Below the pieces are notes generated by a model. That model had not been told where the DNA came from. It saw only the letters and a program-made list of their open reading frames with translations, and searched no databases. From an uncultured Candidatus Saccharibacteria bacterium (GTDB taxonomy: Bacteria > Patescibacteriota > Minisyncoccia > Phycocordibacterales > PALSA-1337): a stretch of 64,000 bases of DNA. Location: the NCBI GenBank assembly GCA_964467225.1, contig CAYXPQ010000001.1, positions 6,812 to 70,811 of the forward strand, written 5' to 3'. Of this stretch, positions 8,713 to 26,076 are shown piece by piece (position 1 is the first letter of the stretch; every line of letters begins with the position of its first letter). Position numbers and translations under genes: made by a program.

Positions 8713-10059
8713 TCACATCATGGCTCGGATTTGTGATATTTCACTCATAAGTAAAGAGTTTGTTTTTAAATCCTCTTTAATCTTCTCACATGAGTGAATT
8801 ACGGTGGTATGGTCTCGACCTCCCATTTTCTCCCCTATTGAAGGGAAGGAAATATTGAAATCTTCACGAAGAATGTACATAATAACTTGTCTTGGTTTAA
8901 CAACCTCCTTCTTTCTAGTTTTTTCGAATATTATATCTTCACTAACATTATAAAAATCAGTAATTAATTTGATAACATCCTTAACTGAAATGTTCTTTTT
9001 GGGTTTTGTACTATTTTTTACTAAATTTTTAATTTCATTTAATGAAAGAGGGCGGTTTTTGAGTTGAGTCTGGCAAACCACTGCATTTATAGTTCCTTCC
9101 AATTCTCTAACATTACTTTCAATACTTGCAGCAAGAAAATCTAATACATCTGGACTTAGTTCTATATTGTTAGCCAAGCTCTTAGCTCTCAATATGGCGG
9201 TTCTGGATTCATGATCTGGGGCTGGTATATCAATTATCATTCCAGCACCGAATCTAGACTTTAGTCTGTCTTCTAGTCCAGGTATGTAATTGGGGTGTTT
9301 ATCAGAGGAAAATACTAATTGTCTGTTGGTGTTATAGAACGTTTCGAATAAATGGAATAATTCTTCCTGGAACTTCTCTTTGCTTGCGAAGAATTGAATA
9401 TCGTCCATAATAATAACATCATATTTTCTATACTTCTCTTTGAATTTTTGAGTAGTGTTGTTTTGTAAAGATGAGAAATATTCAGATCCGAATCTTTCTG
9501 ATGTAAGGTAAAACACCTTTTTTTGAGGAAAGTCCTTTTTTATATGATTCCCTATTGCTTGGATAAGGTGTGTTTTTCCGTGTCCAGTATTTCCGTATAT
9601 AAAAAGTGGATTATATGTAGATCCAGGACTTTTTATTACAGCTTTGGAGGCAGCATGCGCCAACTCATTGAATGGCCCAACAACAAATGAGTCAAAAACA
9701 TATCTAGGGTTAAGATTGTCTTCTTTGTTTATATAGAAATCCTGTAAAGGCATGGAAATTGTGGGGCTAAATTGTTGAGGTTTCTTCTCTGCAAGTTTTC
9801 TTTTATCAGATTCTTTGATAATTACATATTCTAATGCTCTAATACTTTCATTTAATTGTCTCAAAACCTTAAGTATTGTGTTGTGGAATTTCTTATACAA
9901 CCATTGTTGTATAAAAGGATTTGGAACACCAAGATAGACTATTCCCTCCTCACTCTTTACTATACAAGTGTCATTGAACCAGGTAGAAAAGTTGGCTTGT
10001 GATACAGCCTGCTCAATATCTATTAATGCGCGATTCCATAATTCAACATGATCCTTCAT
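8713..10059 (-). CDS. dnaA: Chromosomal replication initiator DnaA
   Basis: Walker A GNTGHGKTHL, AAA+ domain and C-terminal DNA-binding domain. Start chosen at MKDHVELW. Confidence 0.95.
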   Translation of the reverse strand: MKDHVELWNRALIDIEQAVSQANFSTWFNDTCIVKSEEGIVYLGVPNPFIQQWLYKKFHNTILKVLRQLNESIRALEYVIIKESDKRKLAEKKPQQFSPTISMPLQDFYINKEDNLNPRYVFDSFVVGPFNELAHAASKAVIKSPGSTYNPLFIYGNTGHGKTHLIQAIGNHIKKDFPQKKVFYLTSERFGSEYFSSLQNNTTQKFKEKYRKYDVIIMDDIQFFASKEKFQEELFHLFETFYNTNRQLVFSSDKHPNYIPGLEDRLKSRFGAGMIIDIPAPDHESRTAILRAKSLANNIELSPDVLDFLAASIESNVRELEGTINAVVCQTQLKNRPLSLNEIKNLVKNSTKPKKNISVKDVIKLITDFYNVSEDIIFEKTRKKEVVKPRQVIMYILREDFNISFPSIGEKMGGRDHTTVIHSCEKIKEDLKTNSLLMSEISQIRAMM

Positions 10060-10193
10060 GACAATAAGTATATACCTGTTTATAAAATATAAAACTTGTG
10101 GAATAGATAAAATTATGTTGATAAGTTGTGGAGAACACAAAATTTTATTCCAATCTTGAAATTTTAAATTATGTAATGTATAGTAGAATAACT

Positions 10194-10328
10194 ATGTCAT
10201 TTACATATCAACCAAAAAAGAGAAAGAGAGCAAAGACTCATGGATTCTTGGTAAGGTCAAAGACTTCAACAGGAAGAAATGTTCTTAAGAGAAGACGAAC
10301 AAAAGGTCGCAAAAAAATAGCTGTTTAA
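10194..10328 (+). CDS. rpmH: 50S ribosomal protein L34
   Basis: [21 protein letters not shown]... is the classic L34 sequence. Start reset from the longer ORF. Confidence 0.92.
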
Positions 10329-10329: not shown

Positions 10330-10665
10330 ATGCTACCTCGTTTATTGAGGCTAAATATAGGCTTATTTAAGGAAATAATAGAAAAAGGAAGATTTTCCCA
10401 CGGAAAGTACTTCCTTTTTCGCTATGTTAAAAACGAAGGTATACCCCGTTTTGCTGTATCAGTATCTAAGAAAGTATCAAAAAGCGCAGTAGATAGAAAT
10501 AAAATCAGAAGAAGAGTTTATTGTTCAGTTAGAAAATTAATCAACGAAACCCAAGATGGTTACAAAATAATTATTTTTGTTAAATCAGGTATAGAAAAGT
10601 TAAATATAGAAGAAATTTCAAAAGAAATTGAATCAGACTTTGTTAAAAACGGTTTTTTAAAGTAA
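10330..10665 (+). CDS. rnpA: Ribonuclease P protein component
   Basis: Basic 111-aa protein after rpmH. Contains FAVSVSKKV...RNKIRRR motif. Confidence 0.88.
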   Translation: MLPRLLRLNIGLFKEIIEKGRFSHGKYFLFRYVKNEGIPRFAVSVSKKVSKSAVDRNKIRRRVYCSVRKLINETQDGYKIIIFVKSGIEKLNIEEISKEIESDFVKNGFLK

Positions 10666-10675: not shown

Positions 10676-11401
10676 ATGATTTCATATATATACAATAATT
10701 TAATTTTTAACCCACTTTATAACGGCCTTATTTATTTAATAGATGTAATTCCAGGAATTGATGCAGGAATTGCTGTTATTATATTTACAATTATTGTTAG
10801 GTTAATTCTCTTCCCTATTTCAAAAAAAGCTGTGGTTACCCAAGTTAAAATGAAAGAAATAGAGCCTGAATTAAATAGAATAAAGAAAGAAATACCGGAT
10901 AGACAACAACAAGCTCTGGCTGTTATGGATTTATACAAGAGAAAGGGAGTAAATCCTTTTGCAAGCTTTCTTTTTTTGTTTCTTCAACTACCTATTATCT
11001 GGGCATTATATAAAATCTTCATGTCATCAGGTTTGCCTGCCGTGAAAGAATCTCTACTATATGGTTTTGTTAAAGCCCCTGTTATTGATATGAATTTTCT
11101 TGGAATAGTTGATATAGGTTCTAAGAGTATTACTTTGGCTGTTATTGCGGCAATTGCACAATATCTACAGCTACACTTCTCTCTTTCTGCTTCTGGTCAA
11201 CCTAACAAATCTGGCGATCCAGCTATGGATATGGCACAAAACATGATGAAGAATATGAAATATATTTTTCCAGTTATGGTCTTCTTTATTTCATACAAAA
11301 TTGCAGCGGTAGTAGCCTTGTATTGGACTGTAAGTAGTTTATTTACACTCGGTCAAGAAATAGTAGTTAGAAAGCATTTAAAGAATCATCAACCTCTTTA
11401 A
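10676..11401 (+). CDS. yidC: Membrane protein insertase YidC/Oxa1 family (short form)
   Basis: Conserved PISKKAVxxQxKMKEIxPEL and MDLYKRKGVNPF motifs. rpmH-rnpA-yidC synteny. Confidence 0.9.
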   Translation: MISYIYNNLIFNPLYNGLIYLIDVIPGIDAGIAVIIFTIIVRLILFPISKKAVVTQVKMKEIEPELNRIKKEIPDRQQQALAVMDLYKRKGVNPFASFLFLFLQLPIIWALYKIFMSSGLPAVKESLLYGFVKAPVIDMNFLGIVDIGSKSITLAVIAAIAQYLQLHFSLSASGQPNKSGDPAMDMAQNMMKNMKYIFPVMVFFISYKIAAVVALYWTVSSLFTLGQEIVVRKHLKNHQPL

Positions 11402-11402: not shown

Positions 11403-12698
11403 TTATTGATTTAGATCTAACATCCAAAGACTTAAATCTCTTTTGTTTATGAAGTACAAGTAATTTTCTTTCGGATCTAGTGTAAGATCTGTAATATCTA
11501 TCAAAGATTTTGAGAGATTTATAGGATTAGCTAGAAGGTGGACTTCCCCATTTAATACATTTAGTACCCAAATTTGATCTGTAAAAGATACTAAGCCTTT
11601 ATACCAATCTTCAGGATATGATGCTTCTGGAATTTCGGTCGGAACAGCACAATATACTTCATTTTTTCTTAGTTTACTCCAAACACATTTGTCGGCAAGA
11701 GTCTTGAATATGACTTCAGTGCTTGTTCCGTTAGAAATATTTAGTATTTGAGTTTCAATGCCGTTTGTTCCTCTTGAATATAAGAGATATTTACTATCGT
11801 TACTCATCTTTGAGGACAGACCTCTTACAGGCCCTAAGATTTTTTTCATTTCTGCGGTTTTGGTATTTATAGAATATGTATATCCATTTATGGTTGAATT
11901 ACCTTTGGTTGTTAGGGTAACGGTAGATAATTCTGGCCAATCAATATTAACTTGAGTAAGTGGAGTGTCCACAATTTTGGTTCTTGTTTTCTCATCAAAA
12001 GTTGAAATGTTACCTACTCCCCTTCCACTCTCAATCGTCCAAGTAAAAATCTGTTCCCCAGAAGGAGAAACAGAAACACTATCAAAGTTAGACAAATATT
12101 TACCTTTTATTTCAAATGGGGTTGTTGAAGTCGCCATTGATGCAGGAACCTTTCTAACTTCAGCATAAAAATTAGTAATGGTCTCAGTACCATCTTTTAA
12201 ATATCTTAGTACACTAGCAGTCAGGTTTTTGTTCCAGTATGCTTCATATATTTTTGGCAGTGTTGTATTGGATATTTTCTCAATATCTGTAGTTATGTTG
12301 TTTGCTTGATAGACATGACCAGTTCCCCTATCAATATACCTTAACAAAGTAACTTCTATGGATGTTGTGGAAGTTGGAGAGGTTTTGATTTTTGTTGTAC
12401 TAGCAAACATCCCTGCTACAGGCTCTGAGCTAATTAATCTTAATTTAGGCATGGACACTGCTGGATTTGTGTAATCAACTACAATATTTGTGGTGGTTGT
12501 AGAAATATCTATATTATTGTTATTATTTTTTGGGATGTTGTCTGTATTAAGGGGTGTAAAGCCAGATTTGGTATCAGTGTTGTTGGGTGTGTTATTAGTT
12601 ACCACACTGGTATCCTTAAAAAATAACCAATAATATACTCCACCGGCAATTATGGCTATGAAGATTAGAATAATAATTATTAATGTTGATTTTTTCAT
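11403..12698 (-). CDS. Hypothetical membrane-anchored/secreted protein (Thr/Asn-rich linker, beta-rich C-terminal domain)
   Basis: N-terminal TM helix, low-complexity region, 431 aa. Last gene of the T4SS-like operon. Confidence 0.6.
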   Translation of the reverse strand: MKKSTLIIIILIFIAIIAGGVYYWLFFKDTSVVTNNTPNNTDTKSGFTPLNTDNIPKNNNNNIDISTTTTNIVVDYTNPAVSMPKLRLISSEPVAGMFASTTKIKTSPTSTTSIEVTLLRYIDRGTGHVYQANNITTDIEKISNTTLPKIYEAYWNKNLTASVLRYLKDGTETITNFYAEVRKVPASMATSTTPFEIKGKYLSNFDSVSVSPSGEQIFTWTIESGRGVGNISTFDEKTRTKIVDTPLTQVNIDWPELSTVTLTTKGNSTINGYTYSINTKTAEMKKILGPVRGLSSKMSNDSKYLLYSRGTNGIETQILNISNGTSTEVIFKTLADKCVWSKLRKNEVYCAVPTEIPEASYPEDWYKGLVSFTDQIWVLNVLNGEVHLLANPINLSKSLIDITDLTLDPKENYLYFINKRDLSLWMLDLNQ

Positions 12699-12699
12699 G

Positions 12700-13818
12700 C
12701 TACTTTATAATTTTAGATGACTTTTCTAGATAGTCTCGAAGATAAGCAATTCTGAGTTCGAGTATATTTTTATATTGTTCTTCAAGTCTTGGATCGGTTG
12801 AATATGAGGCATATTCTTTCTCGTATGATACTAGTCTTTTTGATACCGCATCCCTACTTTTTGCTGTTTGATCTTGATATGATTTATCAACTTCTTTGAT
12901 CATTTCTCCCTCTTCTCTTAATTGATCAACATAAAAGACTCTATCTGTTCTTAATATTGAAACACCCTCGGTATTATTACTTTTCAACATTTCTTCTATG
13001 TATTTATCATAAAACTTGTTTACTTCTTCAATTTTTTTATCAACTAATGACCAATCGGGATTTGTGGCTCCATACCAATTTGTTTCAGGACTCACTCTCA
13101 AATCAATAGCTAGATTCTTAATACTATTTCTGCCTAGGGTTCCTGTTATTTCTCTAGAAATTTCAATATTCTTTTTTCTAATGGTTTCTTGCTCAATAGC
13201 CTTCTGTATTTGATATTCCTCCTCATCTATTTCTCCGCTTTTTAGTTTGTTCTCGGCAACAGCTAACTTCTCTTGGGCTGCTGACTTTTGAGCGTTTGCA
13301 TCATTAACTTTTTTTATTGCATCTGCATTTACTTTTGCTAGATTTTCTGTGGCACTTAATTTAGCGAAATCTTCAGCGACATTTTTGCCAAAATTTAGTG
13401 TTTCTGTGTCTGCTTTAAAATTCACTGGAGGGATCTCTGTATAAATTTGAACTAATCGCGGATCTATAATCCTAAGAATTAAATATGATGAAAATACTAG
13501 TAACAGACCCGTAATCGCACTTCTTATTCTTTTTTTAGCATCAAGTTTGGTTGGCAAAGCTTCGGCCAACATATATTCAAATCCTGCGTATATAATTACA
13601 ACAATAGCTAGAAAAACAGCTAATGCAATTGAAAATTTAAATACATATCCTACATAATCCTGAAAACTTATTTCTGTCTGCAAGGTACCTTCTGTACAAT
13701 TCCCTACTCCACTTACGCATGGCAGTGGCTCAAGCAAGGTATATTTGTCTACCGCCAAGACAGTTTGGGCTTGGATGGAAAATGCTAATATAAATATTAT
13801 AAATAATAGTTTTTTCAT
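12700..13818 (-). CDS. Membrane protein: signal peptide, two hydrophobic helices (VirB2/TrbC-like topology), long coiled-coil C-terminus
   Basis: Start taken at MKKLLFIIF. An alternative upstream start at 13842 would overlap the previous gene by 23 nt. Confidence 0.55.
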   Translation of the reverse strand: MKKLLFIIFILAFSIQAQTVLAVDKYTLLEPLPCVSGVGNCTEGTLQTEISFQDYVGYVFKFSIALAVFLAIVVIIYAGFEYMLAEALPTKLDAKKRIRSAITGLLLVFSSYLILRIIDPRLVQIYTEIPPVNFKADTETLNFGKNVAEDFAKLSATENLAKVNADAIKKVNDANAQKSAAQEKLAVAENKLKSGEIDEEEYQIQKAIEQETIRKKNIEISREITGTLGRNSIKNLAIDLRVSPETNWYGATNPDWSLVDKKIEEVNKFYDKYIEEMLKSNNTEGVSILRTDRVFYVDQLREEGEMIKEVDKSYQDQTAKSRDAVSKRLVSYEKEYASYSTDPRLEEQYKNILELRIAYLRDYLEKSSKIIK

Positions 13819-13819
13819 T

Positions 13820-14839
13820 TTAGAAAGTTGTGTTCTGTTCATTGTCTTCTTTCTTTTTGAAGTTAATCATTATTGATGATTGAGCTCTTTCAAGTATATC
13901 ATTTTCATGTCTGACTTCTATGTTTATATTTGAACTTCCATCTATATCCCCTTTTGGTCTCAAAATTATGCTTTGATTTTTTGTTAATTCAGGTTGTTCT
14001 ATATTATTTATTGACCAAAGATAGCTTATTTTGTTGTTTTTTGTATTGAAATTAAAACCAAACGGTGCCGCCATTATATTTAATTCTGCATTATTCATTG
14101 TATGAATATTTACAAGGGATTTGTTTAGTAATATTCCGTATAGAGGACTAATTTCATAAAATCCTATACTTGGTTCAACGGGCTCAATTCTTACAAATGA
14201 ATTCGCTTCTTCTCTCTGGTCTCTTGTATAAACGTCAACTGATATATCAAGAGGTTTTGGTATTTCGCTAGCTTTGATCTCTATACTTTGAACACCGTAA
14301 CCTGTACCATTTTCTATGTCCTTACCACCCATTTTCCATCTATATACTAGATTCTTGGGATCAACTTCTTTGATACCATCTGATGATAGATGAGGAATTG
14401 CTATTAGTTTTATCCAATTCTCATAAACAAAAGGATTTTTACCTTTATAAAAAGGTGGAGTATATGATCTACTTGCTTCCCATACAATATCAACTGATCC
14501 AGATTTTAAAGTGATTGATTTTCTAACTTCCTTTCCATTATTGGCACTGATTATGGCTAAGACTGTAGTTCTTTTGCCAATATTGGGTGATTTTGTTGTT
14601 ATTTTTTTGATACCTACTCCTCTTGCTACTTCTTTGCCATCAACTAACCATATTACTGATGAAGAATTTAAATCAATTAAATAACTTTCTATAGTTATAG
14701 TAACAATTTCGTTCGGTGCAGGTTTCTCAGGAGTGCTAGAGATTATCACCCCATCAATTGGTGCTTGATATTGAGCCTTTGCAATTCCAAATGTTACAAA
14801 AAATAGTGATACAAAAAATAACAAAAGAAGTTTTTTCAT
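13820..14839 (-). CDS. Secreted hypothetical protein
   Basis: Cleavable signal peptide MKKLLLLFFVSLFFVTFGIAKA. 339 aa. Confidence 0.6.
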   Translation of the reverse strand: MKKLLLLFFVSLFFVTFGIAKAQYQAPIDGVIISSTPEKPAPNEIVTITIESYLIDLNSSSVIWLVDGKEVARGVGIKKITTKSPNIGKRTTVLAIISANNGKEVRKSITLKSGSVDIVWEASRSYTPPFYKGKNPFVYENWIKLIAIPHLSSDGIKEVDPKNLVYRWKMGGKDIENGTGYGVQSIEIKASEIPKPLDISVDVYTRDQREEANSFVRIEPVEPSIGFYEISPLYGILLNKSLVNIHTMNNAELNIMAAPFGFNFNTKNNKISYLWSINNIEQPELTKNQSIILRPKGDIDGSSNINIEVRHENDILERAQSSIMINFKKKEDNEQNTTF

Positions 14840-14858
14840 TTATTATATTTTAACACAT

Positions 14859-15269
14859 TTAATTTTTATTTGGATATCTTATTCCCTGTTGCGTATTGAA
14901 CTTTGGAGGTCTTAGTCGTGGTGGTGTGGTTCCTGGTGTTTTAGTGACTGATGATAGAGATATTCCAGTCTTTTCTTCTAATCTGATCATTATAATAACC
15001 AAAATCATACCCAGAGTTACTGATGGTAACCATTGAAGTATGGGTATTAATTCTATTAAGGTAGAAATAATTCCTGAAGCGAGTCTTCTGGCATTAACAA
15101 TACCCAAACCAACATACCAAAAATAAATATTAATACAGATCCAAAATCCAGGTCCTAGAATACTTCCTAGTAAAGGAATTAATGATAATAAATCCACTAA
15201 TATAGCAACAAAAATCAAGATAAATGCAGTTATTGTGCCTATTTTATGTGCGGGTCTGTTATCTTCCAT
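14859..15269 (-). CDS. Small polytopic membrane protein
   Basis: Three to four predicted TM helices. Located between the VirB4-like ATPase and the secreted protein. Confidence 0.55.
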   Translation of the reverse strand: MEDNRPAHKIGTITAFILIFVAILVDLLSLIPLLGSILGPGFWICINIYFWYVGLGIVNARRLASGIISTLIELIPILQWLPSVTLGMILVIIMIRLEEKTGISLSSVTKTPGTTPPRLRPPKFNTQQGIRYPNKN

Positions 15270-15280
15270 TTTACTTTTGA

Positions 15281-17095
15281 TTATTGAGCAGAAGAAGCCA
15301 ACTCATCCTTTGCTCTCTTTATGGACAATACCTGTTCTGGATTTGTTGTAATTATTTGGTCTTCTGTATATGAAGCTACTACTTTGATTGCTACGTGTTT
15401 TAGTCCTACGAAGAATATTCCCTCCCCCACATCTGATTCTAATAGTAGATATTTCTCCTCATCAGTTAGGTTGAATGTTTTCTGTACATTATCTATTGAT
15501 GATGGAGATTGTTTCAATAGAATTTGTATTGATGAGTTGGTAATAATTGGCAAACCATAAGGAGATTTAAGGAAATCATCAACGTCCTGTGTAATAGTTG
15601 CTAGTCCTAAATAATACTTTCTTCCTCTCTTGGCTAAACCAAGCAAGAAAGAAGCTGTGTCTTCTGATTTCATCATCCACCATGCCTCATCTATTACCAA
15701 GAGGCGCTTTTTTAGCTGTTTTCTAATAGCATTCCATATATAGTGGGTGACTATATACATTGCGACTGGTTTCAATTCATCTTCCATGTCTCTCAAAGAG
15801 AATACTACGAACTTTTTATTTATATCAACATTTGATGGTCTATTAATAAATCCAGCCCATGTTCCCTTTGTGTATTTAGTCAATCTCTCAACTAGTGATT
15901 CTGCCCCCTCCATTCCAGCAAGTACAAGCTCGAAATCAGAAAGTAATGGTGGCTCAACATTTCTAAAATCCGATTCAGCCGTAATATCTTTCAAGGCGTA
16001 AGTCTCTGTAATTGCTCTATCAATAATAGAATCTTCCTCTTGTGATAATCCACCAAGCATTATTCTGAAAAGTCCAACAAGATTAATTATGTTAGATCTC
16101 AAGACATCTGCAGCACTTTCATCTTCTCTTGGCACCGGTAAATCAAATGGATTAATATGATGCTCCGAATTCAAAGAAATATTAAAATACTTGCCACCAG
16201 TTGCTTCTGCCATATATTCATATTCCTTTTCTGGATCAATGACGATAACTTCGGTATCAAACATCAGTGTTCTAAGTATTTCTAATTTTGTACAGTAGGA
16301 CTTACCAGATCCAGCCTTGGCAAAAGTTACTGAATTGTAGTTTTCAAGTAGGAATCTATCAAAAAGAACCAAAGAAGAGTTGTGTCTGTTGATTCCATAC
16401 AAAATACCCTTATCTGATGTCAGGTCAAATGAAACGAATGGAAATAAACTGGATAATGGTGAAGAATTAAGCTTGGAATGAACCATTAGCTCATCTGTAC
16501 CTATTGGCAACACACTCTTGTAACCACTTTCCTGCTGGAACAAGGCGGGCTTTAAATAAACAAGTTTTGATTCTAGAACTGATTTTATTTCTGATTCTAG
16601 TTTATCTAATTCATTTTCATTATCTCCAAAAATTGTTATATAAACTCCAACATCAAATAATTTCTCTTGGGCTTGCATAAGATTATCTCTCAGTGCCTCG
16701 AGGTCTTGGTAAGCAGTATCCAGCATTGGATCACGAACCAAACCCTTATCTTCTCTTGTTGATATTTGGCTTTGAACTTCAGCAACTTTCTTTTGGAAAT
16801 GTCTAAGAATTTTTGCTGTGTCTATGGGGTGTATAAAAATTGAAATATTAAATATCTTATCCAAATTTATAATCGGAGCGAACCAGCTTTCTGAAAGAAA
16901 TCGGGGGTATGATATGACAAAAAATGTCCTAGCAACTTTCTCACCCAAATTTAATTCCTTTGGACTGATTTTTAATGCGGAGGGAGCAATTATATCTTTT
17001 AATTCCAAAACTCCAGCCTCATATATCTCTTGAGGCATTAGTGAAACAACAGGTGTTTCTTCTTTTCTACCAAACATTTTTGAAAATATACCCAT
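15281..17095 (-). CDS. VirB4/TrbE/TraE-family conjugal-transfer-type ATPase (AAA_10/DUF87-like)
   Basis: Walker A AKAGSGKSY. Walker B LLVIDEAWWMM. 604 aa. Typical VirB4 C-terminal domain layout. Confidence 0.75.
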   Translation of the reverse strand: MGIFSKMFGRKEETPVVSLMPQEIYEAGVLELKDIIAPSALKISPKELNLGEKVARTFFVISYPRFLSESWFAPIINLDKIFNISIFIHPIDTAKILRHFQKKVAEVQSQISTREDKGLVRDPMLDTAYQDLEALRDNLMQAQEKLFDVGVYITIFGDNENELDKLESEIKSVLESKLVYLKPALFQQESGYKSVLPIGTDELMVHSKLNSSPLSSLFPFVSFDLTSDKGILYGINRHNSSLVLFDRFLLENYNSVTFAKAGSGKSYCTKLEILRTLMFDTEVIVIDPEKEYEYMAEATGGKYFNISLNSEHHINPFDLPVPREDESAADVLRSNIINLVGLFRIMLGGLSQEEDSIIDRAITETYALKDITAESDFRNVEPPLLSDFELVLAGMEGAESLVERLTKYTKGTWAGFINRPSNVDINKKFVVFSLRDMEDELKPVAMYIVTHYIWNAIRKQLKKRLLVIDEAWWMMKSEDTASFLLGLAKRGRKYYLGLATITQDVDDFLKSPYGLPIITNSSIQILLKQSPSSIDNVQKTFNLTDEEKYLLLESDVGEGIFFVGLKHVAIKVVASYTEDQIITTNPEQVLSIKRAKDELASSAQ

Positions 17096-17102
17096 AATTA
17101 TT

Positions 17103-17735
17103 TTAGTTTATTTGAATAGGCTTCTCTGTTTCTCCGGGATTGAATATTTTGTAATATAATTCTACCACTTCTTCTGTTCCTAATTCAGCAACACGTATTC
17201 CACATCTTACCAATCCTTGCTCAACAACACCCACTCTTTGTTCGAGTTGGCTTCGGTATTCCTCGAATTGTTCATTTGCAAGAACTTTGCTGTCTGTTCC
17301 CTTTTTCATTATTGAACTAATTGGATTTTTGCTAGCTGTTAAGACTGGAGGAGTATATGGAATTATAATAAAAAAGCTTTTGGTCATTATGCTTGAATTC
17401 TCGACAAAGGTTCTAATAAATTCTATGTATTCTCTTGTCTGTATTTTCATTAACTCTGCTACTTGTTCTTTATATCTTTCTTCAAGCAAGGCAATATATG
17501 GCCTAATATCAAGTCTTTTGGATTGTATGAATATTTGTACTGAGAAATCAAGAGAGTTTAGAAAATTTTGAAATTGGGATATTATCGCATTTTGTTCATC
17601 AGAAGATTTGAGGGCAAAGTTTAAGGAGGATGCCAATACTATAGATCTCATTGATCCATCCTTCAATACTACAATTCCGTCTCTAATCTCTTGAATTGGT
17701 ACGAAATCTTGGGTTGTTTTGGTGTTTTGAGCCAT
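17103..17735 (-). CDS. Hypothetical soluble protein of T4SS-like operon
   Basis: 210-aa ORF translationally coupled to neighbours. Confidence 0.55.
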   Translation of the reverse strand: MAQNTKTTQDFVPIQEIRDGIVVLKDGSMRSIVLASSLNFALKSSDEQNAIISQFQNFLNSLDFSVQIFIQSKRLDIRPYIALLEERYKEQVAELMKIQTREYIEFIRTFVENSSIMTKSFFIIIPYTPPVLTASKNPISSIMKKGTDSKVLANEQFEEYRSQLEQRVGVVEQGLVRCGIRVAELGTEEVVELYYKIFNPGETEKPIQIN

Positions 17736-17737
17736 GA

Positions 17738-18166
17738 TTATTTTTGATTTTTATTTGTGTACATGCTTTCTTTTATATCCAAACTCCATGTAAGATCTTT
17801 AAGCTTACTATCAGAAATCTTGGGAACCATAACAGATGCGTATTGTTTGGCTTCCTGAGCAACGTTTGTTGGAACTTTTTTGTCTACTTTTTTCCAAATA
17901 TATAATTTCGATGAAGTAAAATATTTAAATGCCCACTCGACCACATCAATAAATGGAAAACGTTTGTATAGTTTTCCAAATGATAACGCGATTGAGAAGG
18001 ACATAACTAACATTATAGGTACAATGGAAATTATTAATGATGGAATAAATCTATATATAGCAAATGAAATTCCTGCTCCTCCTGCTAGATACACGAATTG
18101 TCGTATTGTTAATTCACCAACTATTTTGTCCTCAACTTCAATAAATTGTGGAACTTGATACCTCAT
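17738..18166 (-). CDS. PrgI/VirB3-like small membrane protein
   Basis: 142 aa with a two-TM hairpin. Position immediately upstream of the VirB4-like gene mirrors Gram-positive PrgI/VirB3. Confidence 0.5.
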   Translation of the reverse strand: MRYQVPQFIEVEDKIVGELTIRQFVYLAGGAGISFAIYRFIPSLIISIVPIMLVMSFSIALSFGKLYKRFPFIDVVEWAFKYFTSSKLYIWKKVDKKVPTNVAQEAKQYASVMVPKISDSKLKDLTWSLDIKESMYTNKNQK

Positions 18167-18195
18167 GCACTTATTATAACATAGGGATTTTTATC

Positions 18196-18879
18196 TTATG
18201 CGAATGGTTCCCTATATGGGTCCACTGTGTATGGTTTTGGTGGTTGATTTTCTTTTTTATCAACAATTGTTTTTTTCTTGGGAGCAATTTCTACTACTTT
18301 TTTCTCTTCGACTTTCTGTGCATTGTTTATCGGGGTTGTTAATAGATGGTCAATCATTGTTGGATGCTGAGCATCTTCTATTTCTTTCAATATAGCTTCC
18401 CTATCTAGGTTGGTGTCATTATATTGAGGCGAACTTGAAGGTGGGGCTTTTGGTTCAATATGGAACTGCCCTTCTTGCTCAAGTTTCGTAGGACCAAAGT
18501 TTTGTTTTTGAATTTGTTGGGATGTGGGTGGTGGGGGTGGGGTGGGTACCGATAAGGGTTTATTGGAATCTGATAAGAATTGATTATCGATACTGCTTTG
18601 TTGTTTGTCCTGAATTTTGGATTGTATTGGTTTTAGTATTAATGTGTTAACATCAGCTACAATTTTGCTTGATAATTCATTATTAATTTCTAGCCTTTTA
18701 TTTATGTTGTTTTGAAAATCATTTGCATGGGTAAAACCCATTATTACATCTTGAATTTCCGCTGCTAATTCATCCTGTAAATCAAGCATTAAGTTGTATT
18801 TTCCAGCAATCAATGAAATATTTTTATATGTTTCATTTGAATATGCTATTTCTTTAATGTAATTTTTTAGTTGATCCAT
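18196..18879 (-). CDS. Hypothetical protein with Pro-rich low-complexity C-terminal half
   Basis: 227-aa ORF containing a PTPPPPPTSQQ stretch. Confidence 0.5.
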   Translation of the reverse strand: MDQLKNYIKEIAYSNETYKNISLIAGKYNLMLDLQDELAAEIQDVIMGFTHANDFQNNINKRLEINNELSSKIVADVNTLILKPIQSKIQDKQQSSIDNQFLSDSNKPLSVPTPPPPPTSQQIQKQNFGPTKLEQEGQFHIEPKAPPSSSPQYNDTNLDREAILKEIEDAQHPTMIDHLLTTPINNAQKVEEKKVVEIAPKKKTIVDKKENQPPKPYTVDPYREPFA

Positions 18880-18886
18880 AATAATT

Positions 18887-20827
18887 TTAGGTTATCCATG
18901 CATCTTTGTTATCATTAATAAATTTATTGGCCTGATGATTTTTATTGAATTTACCAGTCCAATAATATATTGAGTCTCCTATTTGTTTTCTTAATACATC
19001 ATCCATTCCATCCATATCTTTTAATTGACTAGCTCTCATGTGGGTAATCAAATCATCACTAATTGGTGTTCCTTGAGGTGTATTATTTTCAATATATCTC
19101 TGTAAGTCAGAACCTGTCATATTTTTCATAATTAATTTAATTTCATCATGATTTCCTGAACTGACTGCGTTTGATAAGGCCTTTTCTCTTGATTCAATTA
19201 TCTTTACTTTATCAGCATCTGATCTATCACTTTTATCTATTGCTGAATAAACATTGCTTGGTATAAATGGAATAACATTTTTATCCATCAGCTTATTTTT
19301 ATCTAACGAAGAAATTTCAGAATTAGATAGACCTTCAAATAATTTTTTAATTTCTGCACGATTAGATGTTTTTATAGCATTTTCAAGCTGATTAGTCTTA
19401 TCGGTATTTCTTTTTAATGTGCTAATAATCTTTGCTCTTGCTTTATCCTCATTCTCCACATCAGCTAGGCTTTGTTTTGAACCAAATTTACTATTTTCAT
19501 ATTGATTCAGCTTTCCTCTTACTGCCTGGCTTATACCAAGATTTCTCAATACTGAACTAGTTCTTCTTCCCAGTTCAGAACCTTGTGCACTTGCTGCCAT
19601 TGTGTCAAATTTTTCTCCAGCCCATCTCGCACTTCTTCCCACAGTATTTCTACCTATCACACCACTAACCATACCACTCACCCACTTCTGGGCTGTAACT
19701 CCCCATTTAGCACTATCGCCCCCAAGTTTAATGGCAGCAATTAAGGGGGCTAACATTACAAAATATGCAATAGTATATTGAAGGACCAGACCAACTGTTG
19801 CCATCATAAAATTATTTTTGCTACTAGCGGTTCTTGCAGCATCAAGTTGGCTAAAGAAACCCATACCATCTACTCCTGTTAGAAATTTTACTGATACATA
19901 CATCAACAATAGGTAAACTGGCATAAAGATCAATTGACCTATAAGCAAGCTACGCCATTTGCCTGAAATATTAGATTCGATCTGAGGGAAGATCATTCCA
20001 ACAAAATACACTGGTGAGAATCCCATTAATAATAACAAAATAACGATTCTAATTATGAAAGCAATAGCTGCTGCTAGTATACTTCCAGCGGCAAGTAATA
20101 TAAGAATACTACCTCCAACTGTGGCTATAATAATATGAAAGAAATCTGTCTCTGCAACTCCAGTTACAAATCCTTTGGGATTATTGTATAGGCTGGGAAG
20201 TTTTAAATTCTGCATGAATATATTAGACAATCCATTCTCTGCAGTTGGGGTTGCTGAACCAAGGATTGAAGAAATGCTATTTTTGTCTATTGTTGCAGAA
20301 TTTGGAACTAATGCTCTATAGAACTGTAATGATACCAAGTTTGAAGCGTCTATCAGTGTTTTGGTAAAAAATAGACTAAAGTTTATAAGGATTCCTGCCA
20401 TTATTATGTTTTTTATCAAAGTTGACGCGCTAGTTTTGGCTGCATCTAGAATGGTGAGTATAGAAGTGTAAATTAGAGCAAATATAATAAACATACTTGA
20501 AAGATTCCTTATAACTAGCCATATCTGGTCTATAGCAGGAGTAGCTTCATACAAGGCTTTTATATTGAGTGTGAGTACTATGGCAATATTCAATACCATA
20601 CCAGAAACACTCAAGAACCAGGCAGATGCTGAGAGTACTAACTCCCCCACATAAGCCACTATACCTTTGAAAACTGAACCGAAAGAAAATTCTTTAACAC
20701 ACAGACCAGGGTTAAAAAGACAAGCAATATCAACAGCACCAGCTTGTGCGGGAATAGGATGGAAGGCTACACTTACCACCGTAAGCAACAATATTATTAC
20801 TAGAATTGTGTTAAGTATTCTTCTCAT
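18887..20827 (-). CDS. Polytopic membrane protein, VirB6/TrbL-like
   Basis: Signal peptide plus at least 6 TM helices. Hydrophilic C-terminal tail. 646 aa. Confidence 0.55.
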   Translation of the reverse strand: MRRILNTILVIILLLTVVSVAFHPIPAQAGAVDIACLFNPGLCVKEFSFGSVFKGIVAYVGELVLSASAWFLSVSGMVLNIAIVLTLNIKALYEATPAIDQIWLVIRNLSSMFIIFALIYTSILTILDAAKTSASTLIKNIIMAGILINFSLFFTKTLIDASNLVSLQFYRALVPNSATIDKNSISSILGSATPTAENGLSNIFMQNLKLPSLYNNPKGFVTGVAETDFFHIIIATVGGSILILLAAGSILAAAIAFIIRIVILLLLMGFSPVYFVGMIFPQIESNISGKWRSLLIGQLIFMPVYLLLMYVSVKFLTGVDGMGFFSQLDAARTASSKNNFMMATVGLVLQYTIAYFVMLAPLIAAIKLGGDSAKWGVTAQKWVSGMVSGVIGRNTVGRSARWAGEKFDTMAASAQGSELGRRTSSVLRNLGISQAVRGKLNQYENSKFGSKQSLADVENEDKARAKIISTLKRNTDKTNQLENAIKTSNRAEIKKLFEGLSNSEISSLDKNKLMDKNVIPFIPSNVYSAIDKSDRSDADKVKIIESREKALSNAVSSGNHDEIKLIMKNMTGSDLQRYIENNTPQGTPISDDLITHMRASQLKDMDGMDDVLRKQIGDSIYYWTGKFNKNHQANKFINDNKDAWIT

Positions 20828-20829
20828 AA

Positions 20830-22404
20830 TTATTGACTATTTCTACATCTACCCAGCTGCGTCTTGGAATCGTTTATGTATGGACCTGCGGAAATTTTTG
20901 TTTGATCTAACTGTGTTCTAGCGTCCTGGATATCCTTTGCACTTGTCAGACTCATTGTTGTTGAAAGTTGAGATAATTTCTGGCTTGCAACATTTAGTTC
21001 TTCCAGAGTTCTTGCAGTATTTGCTGTACTTCTGATCTCTCTCATTGTTGTAAGTCTCTTCTCTGCTTCTTCAAATTGAGCTTTAAGTGTGTCTCGTGTT
21101 GGTGTTATTTTTAGAATCGCAGCTTTTACTTCATTTAATCTTGCGGAGAAGGCGCTTAGGTCCCAGTATGGTCGGTTAGGTGTAGTTAATAGTGTATTGA
21201 AACAGGCTACTGCGTCTTTGTAGTCAGTATCTATAGAGTTATATATTTCATAGCTCTGCTTCTTCAAGTCTACATAGTCAGTTGTTAGCTTCAGTGGATT
21301 TTCTATAGTACTCAATACTTGTGTTCTTAGAGTTTCGATTTGCGAAGACGAACCTTCACCATTATTTAGATTGTTTATATAAGAACTACTATCTCCTGGA
21401 CCACTTCCACTTACTGAGCCAAGTCCCTTTGTTAATACTTGGGTAATCAATTGTGCTACTAAAGCATTTACTATTTCATTTATTTCATCTGCAAGCTCAA
21501 GTTGTCTTAGACCAGATCCAAGTTGATTCTCAAGTGAACTAGAAATAACAGATCCTGGTGTTTGGATTTCACATGTTTGATGTTTACTAACTTCTTGTTT
21601 TGCATAGAACTCCTCTTCACTTCCCTTTTCTGCTTTATCCAAATCTTGTTTAGCGTACAATGCTTCCTCAGATCCATCATCTTTACACTTTTTCCATGAT
21701 AAGAATCCCTTGCCTTGATTAATCTCTTCTCTTTGTTGAGATCTGGCACTTGCAACTCTCCAAGATAGATCTGCTTCAGCTTGCAAATATGCACCATAGA
21801 CATTGTTCTGGGGTTCGGTAGACAGACTGACGAAAGCTGGCCAGCCTCCTTGTTTGAAATCCCCAGCTGTAAATCCATTTATTGATGCATTCTCAACTGC
21901 ATTTTTTGTATTTTTGATTATTGTATTTAGGGTACAAGTATATCTTTTCATCACGTTTGGGTGATATTTAAACCTTAGTGCAATTTGAATATCGATGCTA
22001 AACGGTGAACAAAGACTTGTGAGTGGACCTCCATATTTTGCAAGAAATGCACCTGTTACTTGATCTGCTACATCAAGGAAGAATGCTCCAGGATTCTGTA
22101 GAAATGAAGGACTTCCTTCGAAACCAGAATTAATCCAATTAACAACACTTTGAGTCATTTGCCTTACGACTTGTTTTACAAGAACATTAAGCAATCCGTC
22201 CAATACGAATTCCTTTAATTGGAGCGAGTATGTTGAAGCGCTTGAAACAACACTGCTAGCAGCTGTAATAGTGTTTTGGGCTATGTTACCAGCGTCTATG
22301 GTTGCTAGTTGAGCATTAGCTTTTTGAGGAATAAAAATCTGTGGAATAATAAAACTTATTATGAGTATTCCGGATATTAATTTTTTAATAAAAGAAAAAT
22401 TCAT
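20830..22404 (-). CDS. Secreted coiled-coil hypothetical protein
   Basis: Signal peptide. Internal duplicated (L/F)YAKQ(D/E)..K motif. Confidence 0.55.
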   Translation of the reverse strand: MNFSFIKKLISGILIISFIIPQIFIPQKANAQLATIDAGNIAQNTITAASSVVSSASTYSLQLKEFVLDGLLNVLVKQVVRQMTQSVVNWINSGFEGSPSFLQNPGAFFLDVADQVTGAFLAKYGGPLTSLCSPFSIDIQIALRFKYHPNVMKRYTCTLNTIIKNTKNAVENASINGFTAGDFKQGGWPAFVSLSTEPQNNVYGAYLQAEADLSWRVASARSQQREEINQGKGFLSWKKCKDDGSEEALYAKQDLDKAEKGSEEEFYAKQEVSKHQTCEIQTPGSVISSSLENQLGSGLRQLELADEINEIVNALVAQLITQVLTKGLGSVSGSGPGDSSSYINNLNNGEGSSSQIETLRTQVLSTIENPLKLTTDYVDLKKQSYEIYNSIDTDYKDAVACFNTLLTTPNRPYWDLSAFSARLNEVKAAILKITPTRDTLKAQFEEAEKRLTTMREIRSTANTARTLEELNVASQKLSQLSTTMSLTSAKDIQDARTQLDQTKISAGPYINDSKTQLGRCRNSQ

Positions 22405-22410
22405 AATTGT

Positions 22411-23277
22411 CTAATTTGGAATGAAAAATGAACCGCCTTCGTTGTCGTTATATTTCAAACTTAATGAAGTTAATTTGTTTTTGATGTTTAATATTGCATC
22501 AGCAAAAATCTGAACAGTCGGAGTATATCTAGCTACAGCTTGTACTCCCGCAAGCGGGTCTACATCTGATATTCTTAATTTCTCTACAATAAATACCAGA
22601 GAACTTACAGAATTTATTAGATCTATATGCATTTTGGACATTAATTGAGGGACTTCAACATTCAATAAACCATTCAGAATATTTTTGTAACTTTTTATTA
22701 TTGGGTCAAGCTCTTTTAGAATTGCAGGATTCTCTTTGTCGAATGAGTCTTTTGCAATTACGGCTTCATTTCTTGAAGAAATTGAATATGTTTTGAAAAC
22801 ATAACCAGCGTCATTTGCATATTTTCTTATTACATCCACACTATCATTGTTAATTATTTTGAGATTGATTATTGAATACTCCTTCGGAGAAGCTAACATT
22901 ACTCCACTCTGAATGACCTGACCAACCAATTCTTCTTGGCTGGCTTTATCATTTGCATACCCCATCTGTCTGAGTTCCATGTATCTTGCAAAAAAGTCTC
23001 TGCCAAGTAGGTCGGTGGAACTAAGCTTGTCTTTCGATTTGGTCAAATCAGTTGATTTTGAAGTGCTCGCTATGTCATTGGCTTCCAAAATTTTTTGCCA
23101 ATCTACAGATGCCTTGGGATTATCTGGACTAACTATGCTTACAGGATTATTTTTGTATACAATTTCTGATCTATTATTTCTATATTCAGCAACAAAAAAA
23201 GCAACACCTACTAAGCCTATCGCTACTAGGATCATTAACACATTTTTTGTGCTTCCTTTATTGTATAAATACTTCAC
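22411..23277 (-). CDS. N-terminally membrane-anchored hypothetical protein (first gene of T4SS-like operon)
   Basis: 288 aa with a single N-terminal TM helix. Confidence 0.55.
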   Translation of the reverse strand: MKYLYNKGSTKNVLMILVAIGLVGVAFFVAEYRNNRSEIVYKNNPVSIVSPDNPKASVDWQKILEANDIASTSKSTDLTKSKDKLSSTDLLGRDFFARYMELRQMGYANDKASQEELVGQVIQSGVMLASPKEYSIINLKIINNDSVDVIRKYANDAGYVFKTYSISSRNEAVIAKDSFDKENPAILKELDPIIKSYKNILNGLLNVEVPQLMSKMHIDLINSVSSLVFIVEKLRISDVDPLAGVQAVARYTPTVQIFADAILNIKNKLTSLSLKYNDNEGGSFFIPN

Positions 23278-23329: not shown

Positions 23330-24121
23330 CTAGTTATTTCCTACGATTTTTTTCCACATTTCAGGGGATAAGTTCTCTGCTCTTATGTCTTTTGGCAAAT
23401 TTTGTCTTTCCCAAATTTTATCAAGAGTAATTCTAGGTATTTTATCTTCCAAATTATTAATTAGAAACTTTCTTTTGTGAGCAAAACCAGCTTTAAGTAT
23501 TTCAAAAAATACTTTCTCATCAATTTCAGGATTTTCGAAGAAATTTTTTGAAATTTTATCAATAATTAACACTGCAGAATCGACGTTTGGTATTGGTCTA
23601 AAGAATTTCCGTGGCACAGTGACTAAATATCTAGGATTTCCATAGACTTTTACTGAAATTGATAGAATACTTTGTTTCTCATCCACTATTCTCTTGGCAA
23701 GTTCCCTTTGTAGCATAACTACGATTCTGTTAGGAGAATTATCAATTTCCAGGAATTTCCTTAGAAATTCACCACTGATGTAATATGGAATATTGGCTAT
23801 AATTGTGTAATTGTCCTTAGAAAAGAGCTTAAAATCAAGGTTAAAATCTAAAATATCGTGATGAATAAGCTTTAGTTGTCCGGATTTAATATTTTCTGAG
23901 AATTTATCTTGTAGAAATGGTATTGCTCTATTGTCTTTTTCTATTGCTACAACTTTCGCCCCTGTCTTTAGCAGGGCTTCAGTAAGCGCTCCTTTGCCTG
24001 GCCCAACTTCTAAAACCAAGGATTTGTCAGATACTTCTCCAGCATGAACCATTGCCGATATAACATTCGGTGCGTGTAAGAAATTTTGGCCTAATGACTT
24101 TTTTGCGGTGAAGTTTTCCAT
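23330..24121 (-). CDS. rsmA: 16S rRNA (adenine1518/1519-N6)-dimethyltransferase
   Basis: QNFL...VLEVGPGKGALT SAM-binding motif. Confidence 0.92.
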   Translation of the reverse strand: MENFTAKKSLGQNFLHAPNVISAMVHAGEVSDKSLVLEVGPGKGALTEALLKTGAKVVAIEKDNRAIPFLQDKFSENIKSGQLKLIHHDILDFNLDFKLFSKDNYTIIANIPYYISGEFLRKFLEIDNSPNRIVVMLQRELAKRIVDEKQSILSISVKVYGNPRYLVTVPRKFFRPIPNVDSAVLIIDKISKNFFENPEIDEKVFFEILKAGFAHKRKFLINNLEDKIPRITLDKIWERQNLPKDIRAENLSPEMWKKIVGNN

Positions 24122-26076
24122 TAAAAATCTATAAAAATTGCTTTTAATCCTGATGGTTGTTCTGAATCTCCTGTTGAAGTTATGTGTTCATCACCAATAT
24201 CAGAAATAAAGCTAGATGGAGTATTAACTTTTTGTGACCCATATATGGTTCTAAGTTGAGAATAGCTTAAAAATACTTTTTTTCTTGCTCGTGTTAATGC
24301 CACATAGAATAATCTTCTCTCTTCTTCAGTTTGACTTTGACTTACCTTCTCATCATTCATTCTTTGGTGAGGAAACAGATCTTCTTCAAGTCCCACAATA
24401 AAGACATAATCAAATTCCAGACCCTTTGATGCATGTACTGTCATTAGCCTAACAGCATTATTTGTATTTTCCAATTCATCTTGATCGGTAGATAATGCAG
24501 AGTTTTCTAAAAATTTCTCAACACCTTCTGGTGCGGGTAAATAATCATATTGAGAAGCAAAAGTTACTAATTCGCGCAAATTTTCTAATTTATCTTGTTC
24601 TTCTAAAGTTCCATTTTTATATGAATTTTCTATTCCTGTTTCTTTTATAATAAATTTAATTAATTGGGATGGGGTTTGTGTATTAGCGATGCTTTTGATT
24701 TGTTCCAAAAGATTAAGAAATACTGAAACTTTATTTCGTAGAGCTGGTCCCAATGTGTTTTCTTGTTCCGTCACAACTTTTAAAATAGTTGCCTTCCCTA
24801 TTCCTCGTGGGGGAACATTTACAATTCTTACAAGATCGCTAGTACTCTCTCTGTTTAAACCGGCTTTTATAAAAGAGATTACGTCTTTTATTTCCTTTCT
24901 TTCAAAGAATTTTGTGCCCAGGATTTGATAAGGGATATTTTTGTTTAAGAATGCTTCTTCAATAACTCTAGATTGAAAATTAGCTCTATAAAGAATTGCA
25001 ATTTCCTTAGGATCTGAGCCATTTTCTATTAATTCCCTTGCTTTGTCAGCCACAACCCTAGCCTCTTCTTGTTCTGTATATGAAATAAATAATTCTATTT
25101 TTTCTCCCTCAATATTTTTTGTAAAAAGGTTCTTTTCTTTTCTTAATAAATTTTTCTTTATAACGTTGTTGGCTGCTGTGAGGATGGTTTGTGTTGAACG
25201 ATAATTCTCTTCAAGCAATATAACTTTAGCTTCTGGGTATTCTTTTTCAAAATTTAATAAATTGGCAATGTCTGCGCCTCTCCAGCTATAAATATTTTGA
25301 TCAACATCCCCAACTACACAAATATTTCTATGTTCTTGAGCTAATAATGTGGCTATTTCATATTGAACTTTGTTTGTATCCTGATACTCATCAATGTGAA
25401 TATAATTCCAAACAGAACTATAATGCTTTCTAACTTCGAGATTGTTTCTCAATAGAATCGCAGTTTTTAGTAGCAAGTCATCAAAGTCTAATGATTTTTC
25501 TTTTGAAATTACACTTTCATATCTCTCCCATACTTGAGCTACTAATTTTTGAAAAAAATCCTTAAAATTATTTTTGTATGAATTTAGAGTTATACCATCT
25601 CCCTTTTGTCTTGATATCGCTCCCAGAATAGTTCCAGGTTCATACTGTTTGGTGTCGTAGCCAAGCTCTTCCAGTGCATTCTTAACAATCCTCTTGGAAT
25701 CTCCTCTATCTAAAATAGTAAAATGTCTTGGAATACCCAATAAACTACTATTTTCTTTAATAATATGCACCCCTAAAGAGTGAAATGTACTTATAAAAGG
25801 CTTTTCGTTAAAAGATATAGGAATATTTAAGGTTTTGTCACTTTCAATAAGCTGAAACACCCTCTCTCGCATCTCTTTTGCAGCTTTGTTTGTGAAGGTT
25901 ATTGCTAAAATCCTTGAAGGTTCAATTCCGGATTTGATAAGATTCAGTATTCTGTGAGTTATGGTTTTTGTTTTACCTGCTCCAGCACCCGCTACTATAA
26001 GTAGTGGCCCATTGAGAGTCTCCACTGCCTCCTTCTGTCTTAAATTTAGAGATGATTCAGATTTACTTGATGACAT
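24121..26076 (-). CDS. pcrA: ATP-dependent DNA helicase PcrA/UvrD family
   Basis: GAGAGKT Walker A and UvrD helicase motifs. 651 aa. Confidence 0.92.
   Translation of the reverse strand: MSSSKSESSLNLRQKEAVETLNGPLLIVAGAGAGKTKTITHRILNLIKSGIEPSRILAITFTNKAAKEMRERVFQLIESDKTLNIPISFNEKPFISTFHSLGVHIIKENSSLLGIPRHFTILDRGDSKRIVKNALEELGYDTKQYEPGTILGAISRQKGDGITLNSYKNNFKDFFQKLVAQVWERYESVISKEKSLDFDDLLLKTAILLRNNLEVRKHYSSVWNYIHIDEYQDTNKVQYEIATLLAQEHRNICVVGDVDQNIYSWRGADIANLLNFEKEYPEAKVILLEENYRSTQTILTAANNVIKKNLLRKEKNLFTKNIEGEKIELFISYTEQEEARVVADKARELIENGSDPKEIAILYRANFQSRVIEEAFLNKNIPYQILGTKFFERKEIKDVISFIKAGLNRESTSDLVRIVNVPPRGIGKATILKVVTEQENTLGPALRNKVSVFLNLLEQIKSIANTQTPSQLIKFIIKETGIENSYKNGTLEEQDKLENLRELVTFASQYDYLPAPEGVEKFLENSALSTDQDELENTNNAVRLMTVHASKGLEFDYVFIVGLEEDLFPHQRMNDEKVSQSQTEEERRLFYVALTRARKKVFLSYSQLRTIYGSQKVNTPSSFISDIGDEHITSTGDSEQPSGLKAIFIDF

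Follow-up and report, generated by a model that had tools for sequence, protein, structure and literature searches.

The type IV secretion systems (T4SSs) of Patescibacteria have been surveyed in 3,035 genomes, of which 2,417 encode a VirB4 belonging to a clade nested in the MPF-FATA systems (Quinonero-Coronel et al. 2025, Microb Genom; PMC12102498). According to this survey, TrsD is the most abundant accessory component and usually adjoins VirB4; PrgI/VirB3, VirB6 and VirB2-like pilins are encoded near virB4; and relaxases occur in only 103 of the 3,035 genomes. In Paceibacteria, the genes adjoining virB4 are dnaA, dnaN, rnpA, ksgA and rpmH (PMC12102498). In Southlakia epibionticum ML1, which belongs to another class, Saccharimonadia, the T4SS genes SEML1_0006-0019 were found by transposon sequencing (Tn-seq) to be essential for epibiotic growth (Wang et al. 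2023, Cell; PMC10633639). Deletion of comEC is viable in Saccharibacteria (reviewed in PMC12857230), so the essential role of the T4SS does not run through ComEC. Here we analyse a cluster of eleven genes, g1 to g11, in a 64-kb stretch of DNA from an uncultured member of the Paceibacteria (assembly GCA_964467225.1, contig CAYXPQ010000001.1, positions 6,812 to 70,811; hereafter the window). The cluster is very probably a chromosomal, relaxase-free T4SS of the Patescibacteria clade, derived from Gram-positive MPF-FATA conjugation machinery and fixed near dnaA in the Paceibacteria core genome.

The prototype of the MPF-FATA systems is Prg/Pcf of the Enterococcus faecalis plasmid pCF10, a monoderm system with no outer-membrane core complex. 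Its parts include a type IV coupling protein (T4CP; PcfC), a relaxase (PcfG), a hydrolase (PrgK), a VirB8-like protein (PrgL) and adhesins (PrgB and PrgC); a pilin is lacking, and VirB4 (PrgJ) consists of one polypeptide. The Trs conjugation system of the Staphylococcus plasmids pGO1/pSK41, compared here by description, comprises both a relaxase and a T4CP; next to its VirB4 gene lies a separate one for TrsD, a small homologue of the VirB4 N terminus.

The window cluster shows no difference of substance from the surveyed Patescibacteria T4SSs, with which it has in common an MPF-FATA VirB4, an adjacent TrsD-like protein, PrgI/VirB3, a candidate VirB6-like protein and a VirB2-like pilin, as well as the absence of a nearby relaxase or T4CP and the chromosomal dnaA/dnaN/rnpA/ksgA/rpmH context (PMC12102498). 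Both the system and its origin-proximal context are already known, having been described between 2023 and 2025. An initial annotation of the stretch, made from its letters, had stated that such clusters are reported in CPR (candidate phyla radiation) bacteria, which is correct, and the published description is fuller than it implied. What the window adds to the survey is fold-level support for VirB6, a long-tailed pilin, the positional conservation of six partner genes and a VirB4 that is more conserved than DnaA.

With the Southlakia ML1 system the cluster shares the gene order VirB6-like ... PrgI, TrsD-like, VirB4, the origin-proximal position (judged by locus tags), VirB2-like pilins and the lack of a recognised relaxase or coupling protein. 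In ML1, six small pilins form a divergent array, a lysozyme gene lies downstream of virB4, an NTF2-like (VirB8-like) protein is present, and the VirB6-like and PrgI proteins are much larger; in the window cluster, the pilin domain occurs in a single long protein, and neither a hydrolase nor an NTF2-like protein was identified inside it.

Components of the T4SS cluster

The cluster occupies positions 11403-23277 of the window. The eleven co-directional open reading frames (ORFs) of the initial annotation, and their lengths, were confirmed; numbered in transcription order, they are as follows.

g1, 22411-23277, minus strand: 288 residues from a GTG start; bitopic protein with one N-terminal transmembrane (TM) segment and an extracytoplasmic domain of ~250 residues
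g2, 20830-22404, minus strand: 524 residues; secreted, with a signal peptide; a Cys-containing domain is conserved (~residues 60-330), and the C terminus forms a helical bundle
g3, 18887-20827, minus strand: 646 residues; polytopic membrane protein ending in a long hydrophilic domain
g4, 18196-18879, minus strand: 227 residues; soluble protein with a helical N terminus and a proline-rich middle
g5, 17738-18166, minus strand: 142 residues; small membrane protein of the PrgI/VirB3 family
g6, 17103-17735, minus strand: 210 residues; soluble TrsD-like protein, the VirB4 N-terminal domain as a separate gene
g7, 15281-17095, minus strand: 604 residues; VirB4 ATPase of CD1110/MPF-FATA type, without the N-terminal domain
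g8, 14859-15269, minus strand: 136 residues; small polytopic membrane protein with at least two TM segments
g9, 13820-14839, minus strand: 339 residues; secreted protein with a signal peptide
g10, 12700-13842, minus strand: 380 residues; VirB2-like T4SS pilin domain (~residues 35-130) with a variable coiled-coil tail of ~250 residues
g11, 11403-12698, minus strand: 431 residues; N-terminally anchored extracytoplasmic protein with one TM segment

The component identities and the division of VirB4 over two genes were observed directly. The ATPase g7 scores 373 bits (cutoff 325) against the NCBIfam model NF045971, 'VirB4-like conjugal transfer ATPase, CD1110 family', of which it covers positions 179-733 of 752, and it also matches the Pfam families P-loop_TraG (94 bits), AAA_10 (44 bits) and DUF87. 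The Walker A motif GSGKS lies at residue 262 (window 16298-16312) and the Walker B motif LLVIDEAWW at residue 465 (15677-15703); the initial annotation had noted both motifs in what it called a VirB4/TrbE-type ATPase. Over residues 215-772 of PrgJ, g7 is 26% identical (E = 3e-42). The closest plasmid-borne VirB4 proteins come from Gram-positive bacteria, at 28-36% identity; among the matches listed at 78-100% identity, the named sources are all metagenome-assembled genomes (MAGs) of Patescibacteria/CPR or of unclassified bacteria.

The N-terminal part that g7 lacks corresponds to g6, a protein in which a scan for hydrophobic segments found none. Its NCBIfam matches are VirB4_plasma (mycoplasma VirB4; positions 100-233, 43 bits), TrsD (33 bits) and CD1110 (positions 1-119, 25 bits), all below the whole-protein cutoffs (200 for TrsD). 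A BLASTP comparison with the PrgJ N terminus was not significant, so the TrsD/VirB4-N assignment rests on the NCBIfam profiles. For comparison among relatives, we scanned GTDB at one genome per species and took the 80 loci most similar in g7/VirB4; these are labelled Paceibacterota, Taylor-, Zambryski-, Wolfe- or Nomurabacteria, or generic Patescibacteria/Saccharibacteria MAGs. In 79 of the 80, g6 is a separate ORF of ~210 residues; the split VirB4 is therefore its normal state, and a frameshift between g6 and g7 was rejected. The arrangement resembles the separate TrsD of the Trs plasmids and differs from the single polypeptide of pCF10.

The third member of this module, g5, matches PrgI (PF12666) with 37.3 bits (cutoff 27) and aligns with pCF10 PrgI in hhalign (E = 0.0017); it is the expected membrane anchor for VirB4. 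Its identification as PrgI/VirB3 by the initial annotation stands, but it does not lie directly upstream of the ATPase, as was claimed, because g6 is in between. When ten of the operon proteins were compared as profiles with 14 pCF10 Prg/Pcf proteins by hhalign, g5-PrgI was the only match, and no PrgH, PrgL, PrgK or PrgF was found; g5 and g7, corresponding to PrgI/VirB3 and PrgJ/VirB4, are the only window proteins that matched a pCF10 protein.

The candidate channel subunit is g3. Its polytopic nature, noted by the initial annotation, is borne out by seven hydrophobic segments within residues 4-366, which are followed by a hydrophilic tail of ~280 residues. In a comparison of its predicted model with 48,164 chains, DotA ranked first and TrwI/VirB6 third, which gives fold-level support to a VirB6/DotA-like fold and suggests an 'extended VirB6'. 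Sequence identity to the two channel subunits, TrwI/VirB6 of R388 Trw and DotA of Legionella Dot/Icm, is 7-9%; both of these belong to diderm systems with an outer-membrane core complex, and, compared with them, g3 is extended at its C terminus by a helical domain of ~280 residues.

The pilin candidate, g10, had been missed by the initial annotation, as had the split of VirB4. It has a signal peptide, an 'LLxPLP' stretch and two TM helices, as is typical of the T4SS pilin family PF18895. The window protein itself scores 19.2 bits against this family, below the cutoff of 26.6, and 25 of 27 g10 orthologues match it (best E = 2.3e-9). A pilin-like ORF (signal peptide and two TM segments, 140-500 residues) fills the slot between g9 and g11 in all 39 loci with full flanks described below. 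The tail of ~250 residues is unusual for a VirB2-like pilin. In some loci, a pilin of just ~140 residues or a pair of pilin-like genes is found there instead. Two g10 orthologues have weak CHAP matches (best E = 0.0024) and one an NlpC/P60 match (E = 2.5e-5), which suggests that a pilin-like protein may be fused to a cell-wall hydrolase in some species.

From g1 to g11, the intergenic gaps are 6, 2, 7, 29, 2, 7, 11, 19, -23 and 1 nucleotides (nt), g9/g10 being the only overlapping pair. The true start of g10 is probably its second Met (MKKLLF), in which case this overlap would probably vanish. The initial annotation had described the genes as translationally coupled: their tight packing is evident, and the coupling itself is what we infer from it, given a single overlapping pair. 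A scan for consensus promoters and terminators gave counts no higher than the shuffled expectation, and operon boundaries were not definable by this means. Paralogy among the operon proteins was not found, the only resemblance being that between the signal peptides of g2 and g3.

Synteny and conservation among related species

The cluster lies between ksgA and yidC in a core region, as the initial annotation had it, with rnpA, rpmH, dnaA and dnaN beyond yidC. The flanking genes are as follows.

dnaN, 7378-8484, minus strand: identified by Pfam
dnaA, 8713-10140, minus strand: identified by Pfam
rpmH, 10194-10328, plus strand: read from the ORF translation
rnpA, 10330-10665, plus strand: identified by Pfam
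yidC, 10676-11401, plus strand: identified by Pfam
ksgA, 23330-24121, minus strand: RrnaAD, 171 bits
uvrD/pcrA-type helicase, 24121-26076, minus strand: UvrD-helicase, 282 bits

The helicase gene shares 1 nt with ksgA, which is in turn spaced 52 nt from g1, so that, counting these two, the co-directional run extends to 13 genes.

Synteny and the gradient of conservation were observed in the 39 loci, each from a different species, that had full 10 kb flanks. All 39 contain g2, g3, g5, g6, g7, g9 and g11 together with yidC and dnaA; dnaN is kept in 38, ksgA in 37 and uvrD in 31. The order and strand of the window, uvrD-ksgA-[cluster]-yidC-rnpA-dnaA-dnaN, recur in 37 of the 39. Although g1, g8 and g10 evolve fast, their slots are conserved by position. 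Median identity to the window protein is 83.5% for g7, 66% for g6 and 52.6% for g5, compared with 60.7% for DnaA and 54.4% for DnaN, and falls to 27-34% for g1 (~28%), g2, g3, g4, g9, g10 and g11. Over these 39 related species, VirB4 is thus more conserved than DnaA and DnaN. At the level of sequence, this pattern fits a constrained cytoplasmic motor combined with fast-changing exposed parts.

No integrase, tRNA, repeat or shift in composition was found at the cluster borders, and the GC content of the cluster (0.341) is close to that of the remaining window (0.329). When all ORFs of 110 residues or more in the window were scanned with Pfam, neither a coupling protein of the T4CP/VirD4/TcpA type nor a relaxase domain was found. 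The statement of the initial annotation that VirD4, relaxase, integrase and flanking tRNA are missing holds in the window for the first two and at the flanks for the others; the only recombinase in the window, a Xer-like tyrosine recombinase, lies 12 kb from the cluster and does not flank it. The features of conjugative MPF-FATA systems of the pCF10/CTn2 type, namely a relaxase or coupling protein (here, within the 64 kb) and carriage on a plasmid or integrative element, are absent. The initial annotation considered the cluster a conserved chromosomal system rather than a conjugative element, and its presence at the same chromosomal position in all 39 species loci, without mobile-element signatures at its borders, agrees with this. 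Two outcomes had been named as grounds for abandoning that view, a failure of the ATPase to match VirB4-family models and the absence of the cluster from relatives together with mobile-element flanks; we looked for both, and neither applies.

Two further observations concern the relatives. In several loci (L016, L076, L078, L079 and others), an extra transporter-like gene of 535-550 residues with 12-13 TM segments separates ksgA from g1; insertions are thus accepted at the cluster's upstream edge. Two Logan assemblies, SRR13355620 and SRR13355622 (L082 and L083), contain a g3 identical to that of the window, with upstream genes equal in length and Pfam families, which indicates that the same or a near-identical organism was sampled in these two sequencing runs.

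Partner proteins and the surrounding window

The remaining cluster proteins are less readily assigned. The bitopic protein g1 has no Pfam or NCBIfam match, and a Pfam scan of its orthologues returned no consistent family; nearly all related loci have an ORF of ~255-354 residues with one TM segment in the slot ahead of g2. A weak match to DUF4141 was found for g2. For g4, neither a TM segment nor a signal peptide was found; tblastn detects it in 17 of the 39 loci, and its slot is always filled by one or two soluble ORFs, g4 being fast-evolving. The initial annotation had taken the rest of the cluster to be secreted or membrane-anchored, which is wrong for both g4 and g6, neither of which has a hydrophobic segment. 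The small membrane protein g8 matches no Pfam or NCBIfam family, and an ORF with two to four TM segments follows VirB4 in ~33 of the 39 loci.

The Pfam scan gave no match for the window g9. Its orthologues show scattered weak matches to Ig-like families (BiPBP_C, Ig_3, TIG, Big_2 and PKD_3), in sum at most ~10 of 40, and this weak evidence suggests that g9 is probably made of Ig-like beta-sandwich repeats. No Pfam match was found for g11 in 41 orthologues (TolB, at E = 0.35, is not significant), and a beta-propeller fold would be only a guess. Profile searches against PDB sequences returned nothing significant for g1, g2, g9 or g11.

Two other genes of the window bear on the system.

LysM and M23 peptidase, 26347-27447, plus strand: Peptidase_M23 (105 bits) and LysM (69 bits), divergent, upstream of uvrD and 3 kb upstream of the cluster
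Xer-like tyrosine recombinase, 35677-36741, plus strand: 354 residues, Phage_integrase and SAM_1 (SAM-like and catalytic domains)

The peptidase may be the VirB1-type hydrolase that is absent from the cluster, judging from its domains; VirB1-like matches carrying M23/LysM domains have been reported in Patescibacteria (PMC12102498). Its gene was seen in 7 of the 39 loci, in a position that coincides with the edge of the fetched flank. An ORF of 110 residues overlaps the start of the Xer-like recombinase gene, the pair spanning 35348-36741 (plus strand).

Four tRNAs lie at 39.6-41.0 kb, and an Rfam scan found nothing else. DnaA-box-like sites number 33 in the window, weakly above the chance expectation of 22.6 ± 5.3; three of them fall in the dnaN-dnaA spacer (8659-8712). 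At 39887-39930, between tRNA-Gly and a UPF0102 gene, there are three DnaA-box-like 9-mers, one of them perfect, at a density equal to that of the dnaN-dnaA spacer. The origin of replication was not placed with confidence from DnaA boxes. The cumulative GC skew has its minimum at ~50200, 40 kb from dnaA, where gene orientation flips (NusA on the minus strand, PilB on the plus strand); the skew tracks the coding strand and therefore does not locate the origin at the scale of the window.

A type IV pilus cluster at 50358-57133 (plus strand) encodes a PilB-type ATPase (T2SSE and MshEN), PilC (T2SSF), a 590-residue N_methyl pseudopilin with a CarboxypepD_reg domain and two ORFs without assignment; a truncated T2SSE ATPase stands at the start of the window (58-648, plus strand). 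The adjoining genes for RecJ (59375-61057), RNase H (61061-61540) and ComEC (61610-62944) are all on the plus strand; a channel for DNA uptake in competence is thus encoded 40 kb away from the T4SS.

Proposed assembly and competing explanations

By analogy with known T4SS structures, the parts could be assembled as follows. A two-polypeptide VirB4 ATPase, with g6 as its N-domain and g7 as its motor, would dock on the membrane via the PrgI/VirB3 protein g5 and be seated on g3 as a VirB6-like polytopic channel subunit. Driven by the motor, the VirB2-like pilin g10 would be assembled to give a fibre or conduit at the surface, and the secreted or membrane-anchored proteins g1, g2, g8, g9 and g11 would make up the extracellular part, fast-evolving and in contact with the host cell. 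With no membrane segment, g4 has no place in this scheme. Since no relaxase or coupling protein is at hand, the assembly is not a conjugation machine. As to substrate and direction of transport, it most likely passes macromolecules between epibiont and host cell in a contact-dependent manner. We weight export of protein effectors above import, as a plausible role that nonetheless stops somewhat short of being probable.

Several points weigh against the overall interpretation of the cluster as a fixed Patescibacteria-clade T4SS. Membership of g7 in that clade is suggested by best hits. The VirB6/TrbL-like label given to g3 by the initial annotation found no backing in any sequence family model (Pfam, NCBIfam and the Pfam scan of orthologues), and a Foldseek search with g3 gave no match at E ≤ 1e-3. 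Six of the eleven proteins (g1, g2, g4, g8, g9 and g11) are without a family assignment, and within the cluster neither a VirB8-like nor a VirB1-like component was recognised by hhalign against PrgL/PrgK or by the g1 profile against the PDB. The comparison loci were chosen by VirB4 similarity, which inflates VirB4 conservation somewhat; the gap to DnaA is large. T4CP homologues occur elsewhere in many Patescibacteria genomes (PMC12102498), and their absence here covers 64 kb only. Finally, a 2024 perspective called the role of these T4SSs 'completely unknown', listing effector delivery and nucleotide or DNA uptake as ideas (PMC11665869).

Uptake is the alternative that survives best, although we consider it unlikely: the cluster would be a machine for importing DNA or nucleotides, like Helicobacter ComB or archaeal Ced, in an organism that cannot make nucleotides. 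The window contains neither the relaxase nor the T4CP that DNA export requires, and ComEC, RecJ and the type IV pilus genes lie within the same 64 kb; the last point cuts both ways, as the standard uptake route of type IV pilus and ComEC is then already encoded there. The set of VirB2-like pilin, VirB4 and VirB6-like protein resembles the parts list of the archaeal Ced/Ted systems, but the matches to CedB (34.8 bits, cutoff 700) and CedD (16 bits, cutoff 600) amount to P-loop similarity only, and the VirB4 is of the Gram-positive conjugative type. Because comEC is dispensable, the T4SS has been proposed as a candidate route of nucleotide acquisition (PMC11665869), but import by this means has no experimental support in any Patescibacteria.

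A bolder form of import, to which we give a slighter chance, makes the system an essential feeding conduit, in which a VirB2-type fibre, built by the split VirB4 motor, would penetrate the envelope of the host and its nucleic acid or other macromolecules would be drawn in through the VirB6-like channel. The conserved upstream UvrD/PcrA-type helicase might then help to process incoming DNA, and the fast-evolving g1, g2, g9, g10 tail and g11 would set the host range.

It is more doubtful that the apparatus serves adhesion only, with a VirB2-type fibre attaching the cell to its host and no substrate being transferred. The presence of a pilin-like gene in the slot in 39 of 39 loci and the rapid evolution of the exposed partners, as expected of host-contact proteins, are in keeping with this idea, and a potential to elaborate conjugative pili has been noted (PMC12857230). 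The g10 tail, however, is unusual in a pilin that polymerises, the window also encodes a complete type IV pilus cluster for adhesion, and the extended VirB6-like channel subunit is kept in all loci.

A decayed or active integrative conjugative element with its relaxase and coupling protein outside the window is very improbable and was rejected on synteny and composition: the closest VirB4 relatives beyond Patescibacteria are on conjugative plasmids and integrative conjugative elements, T4CP genes can be distant from virB4 (PMC12102498) and a Xer-like recombinase is 12 kb away, but the cluster occupies the same ksgA-yidC site in 37 of 39 species loci, equals its surroundings in composition, has no integrase, tRNA or repeat at its borders and encodes a VirB4 more conserved than DnaA, and relaxases are rare in the surveyed genomes.

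We therefore return to the chromosomal, relaxase-free T4SS as the reading of this cluster. Patescibacteria account for a large part of bacterial diversity and apparently live on other cells, and this T4SS is among their most conserved envelope machines. In the lineage studied here, its motor is more conserved than DnaA, and its counterpart in Saccharibacteria is essential. The locus is not a new kind of system; it is a compact and well-ordered Paceibacteria example with clear gene boundaries, and its six universally co-located partner genes could guide co-folding, the interpretation of cryo-electron tomography and the hunt for substrates.

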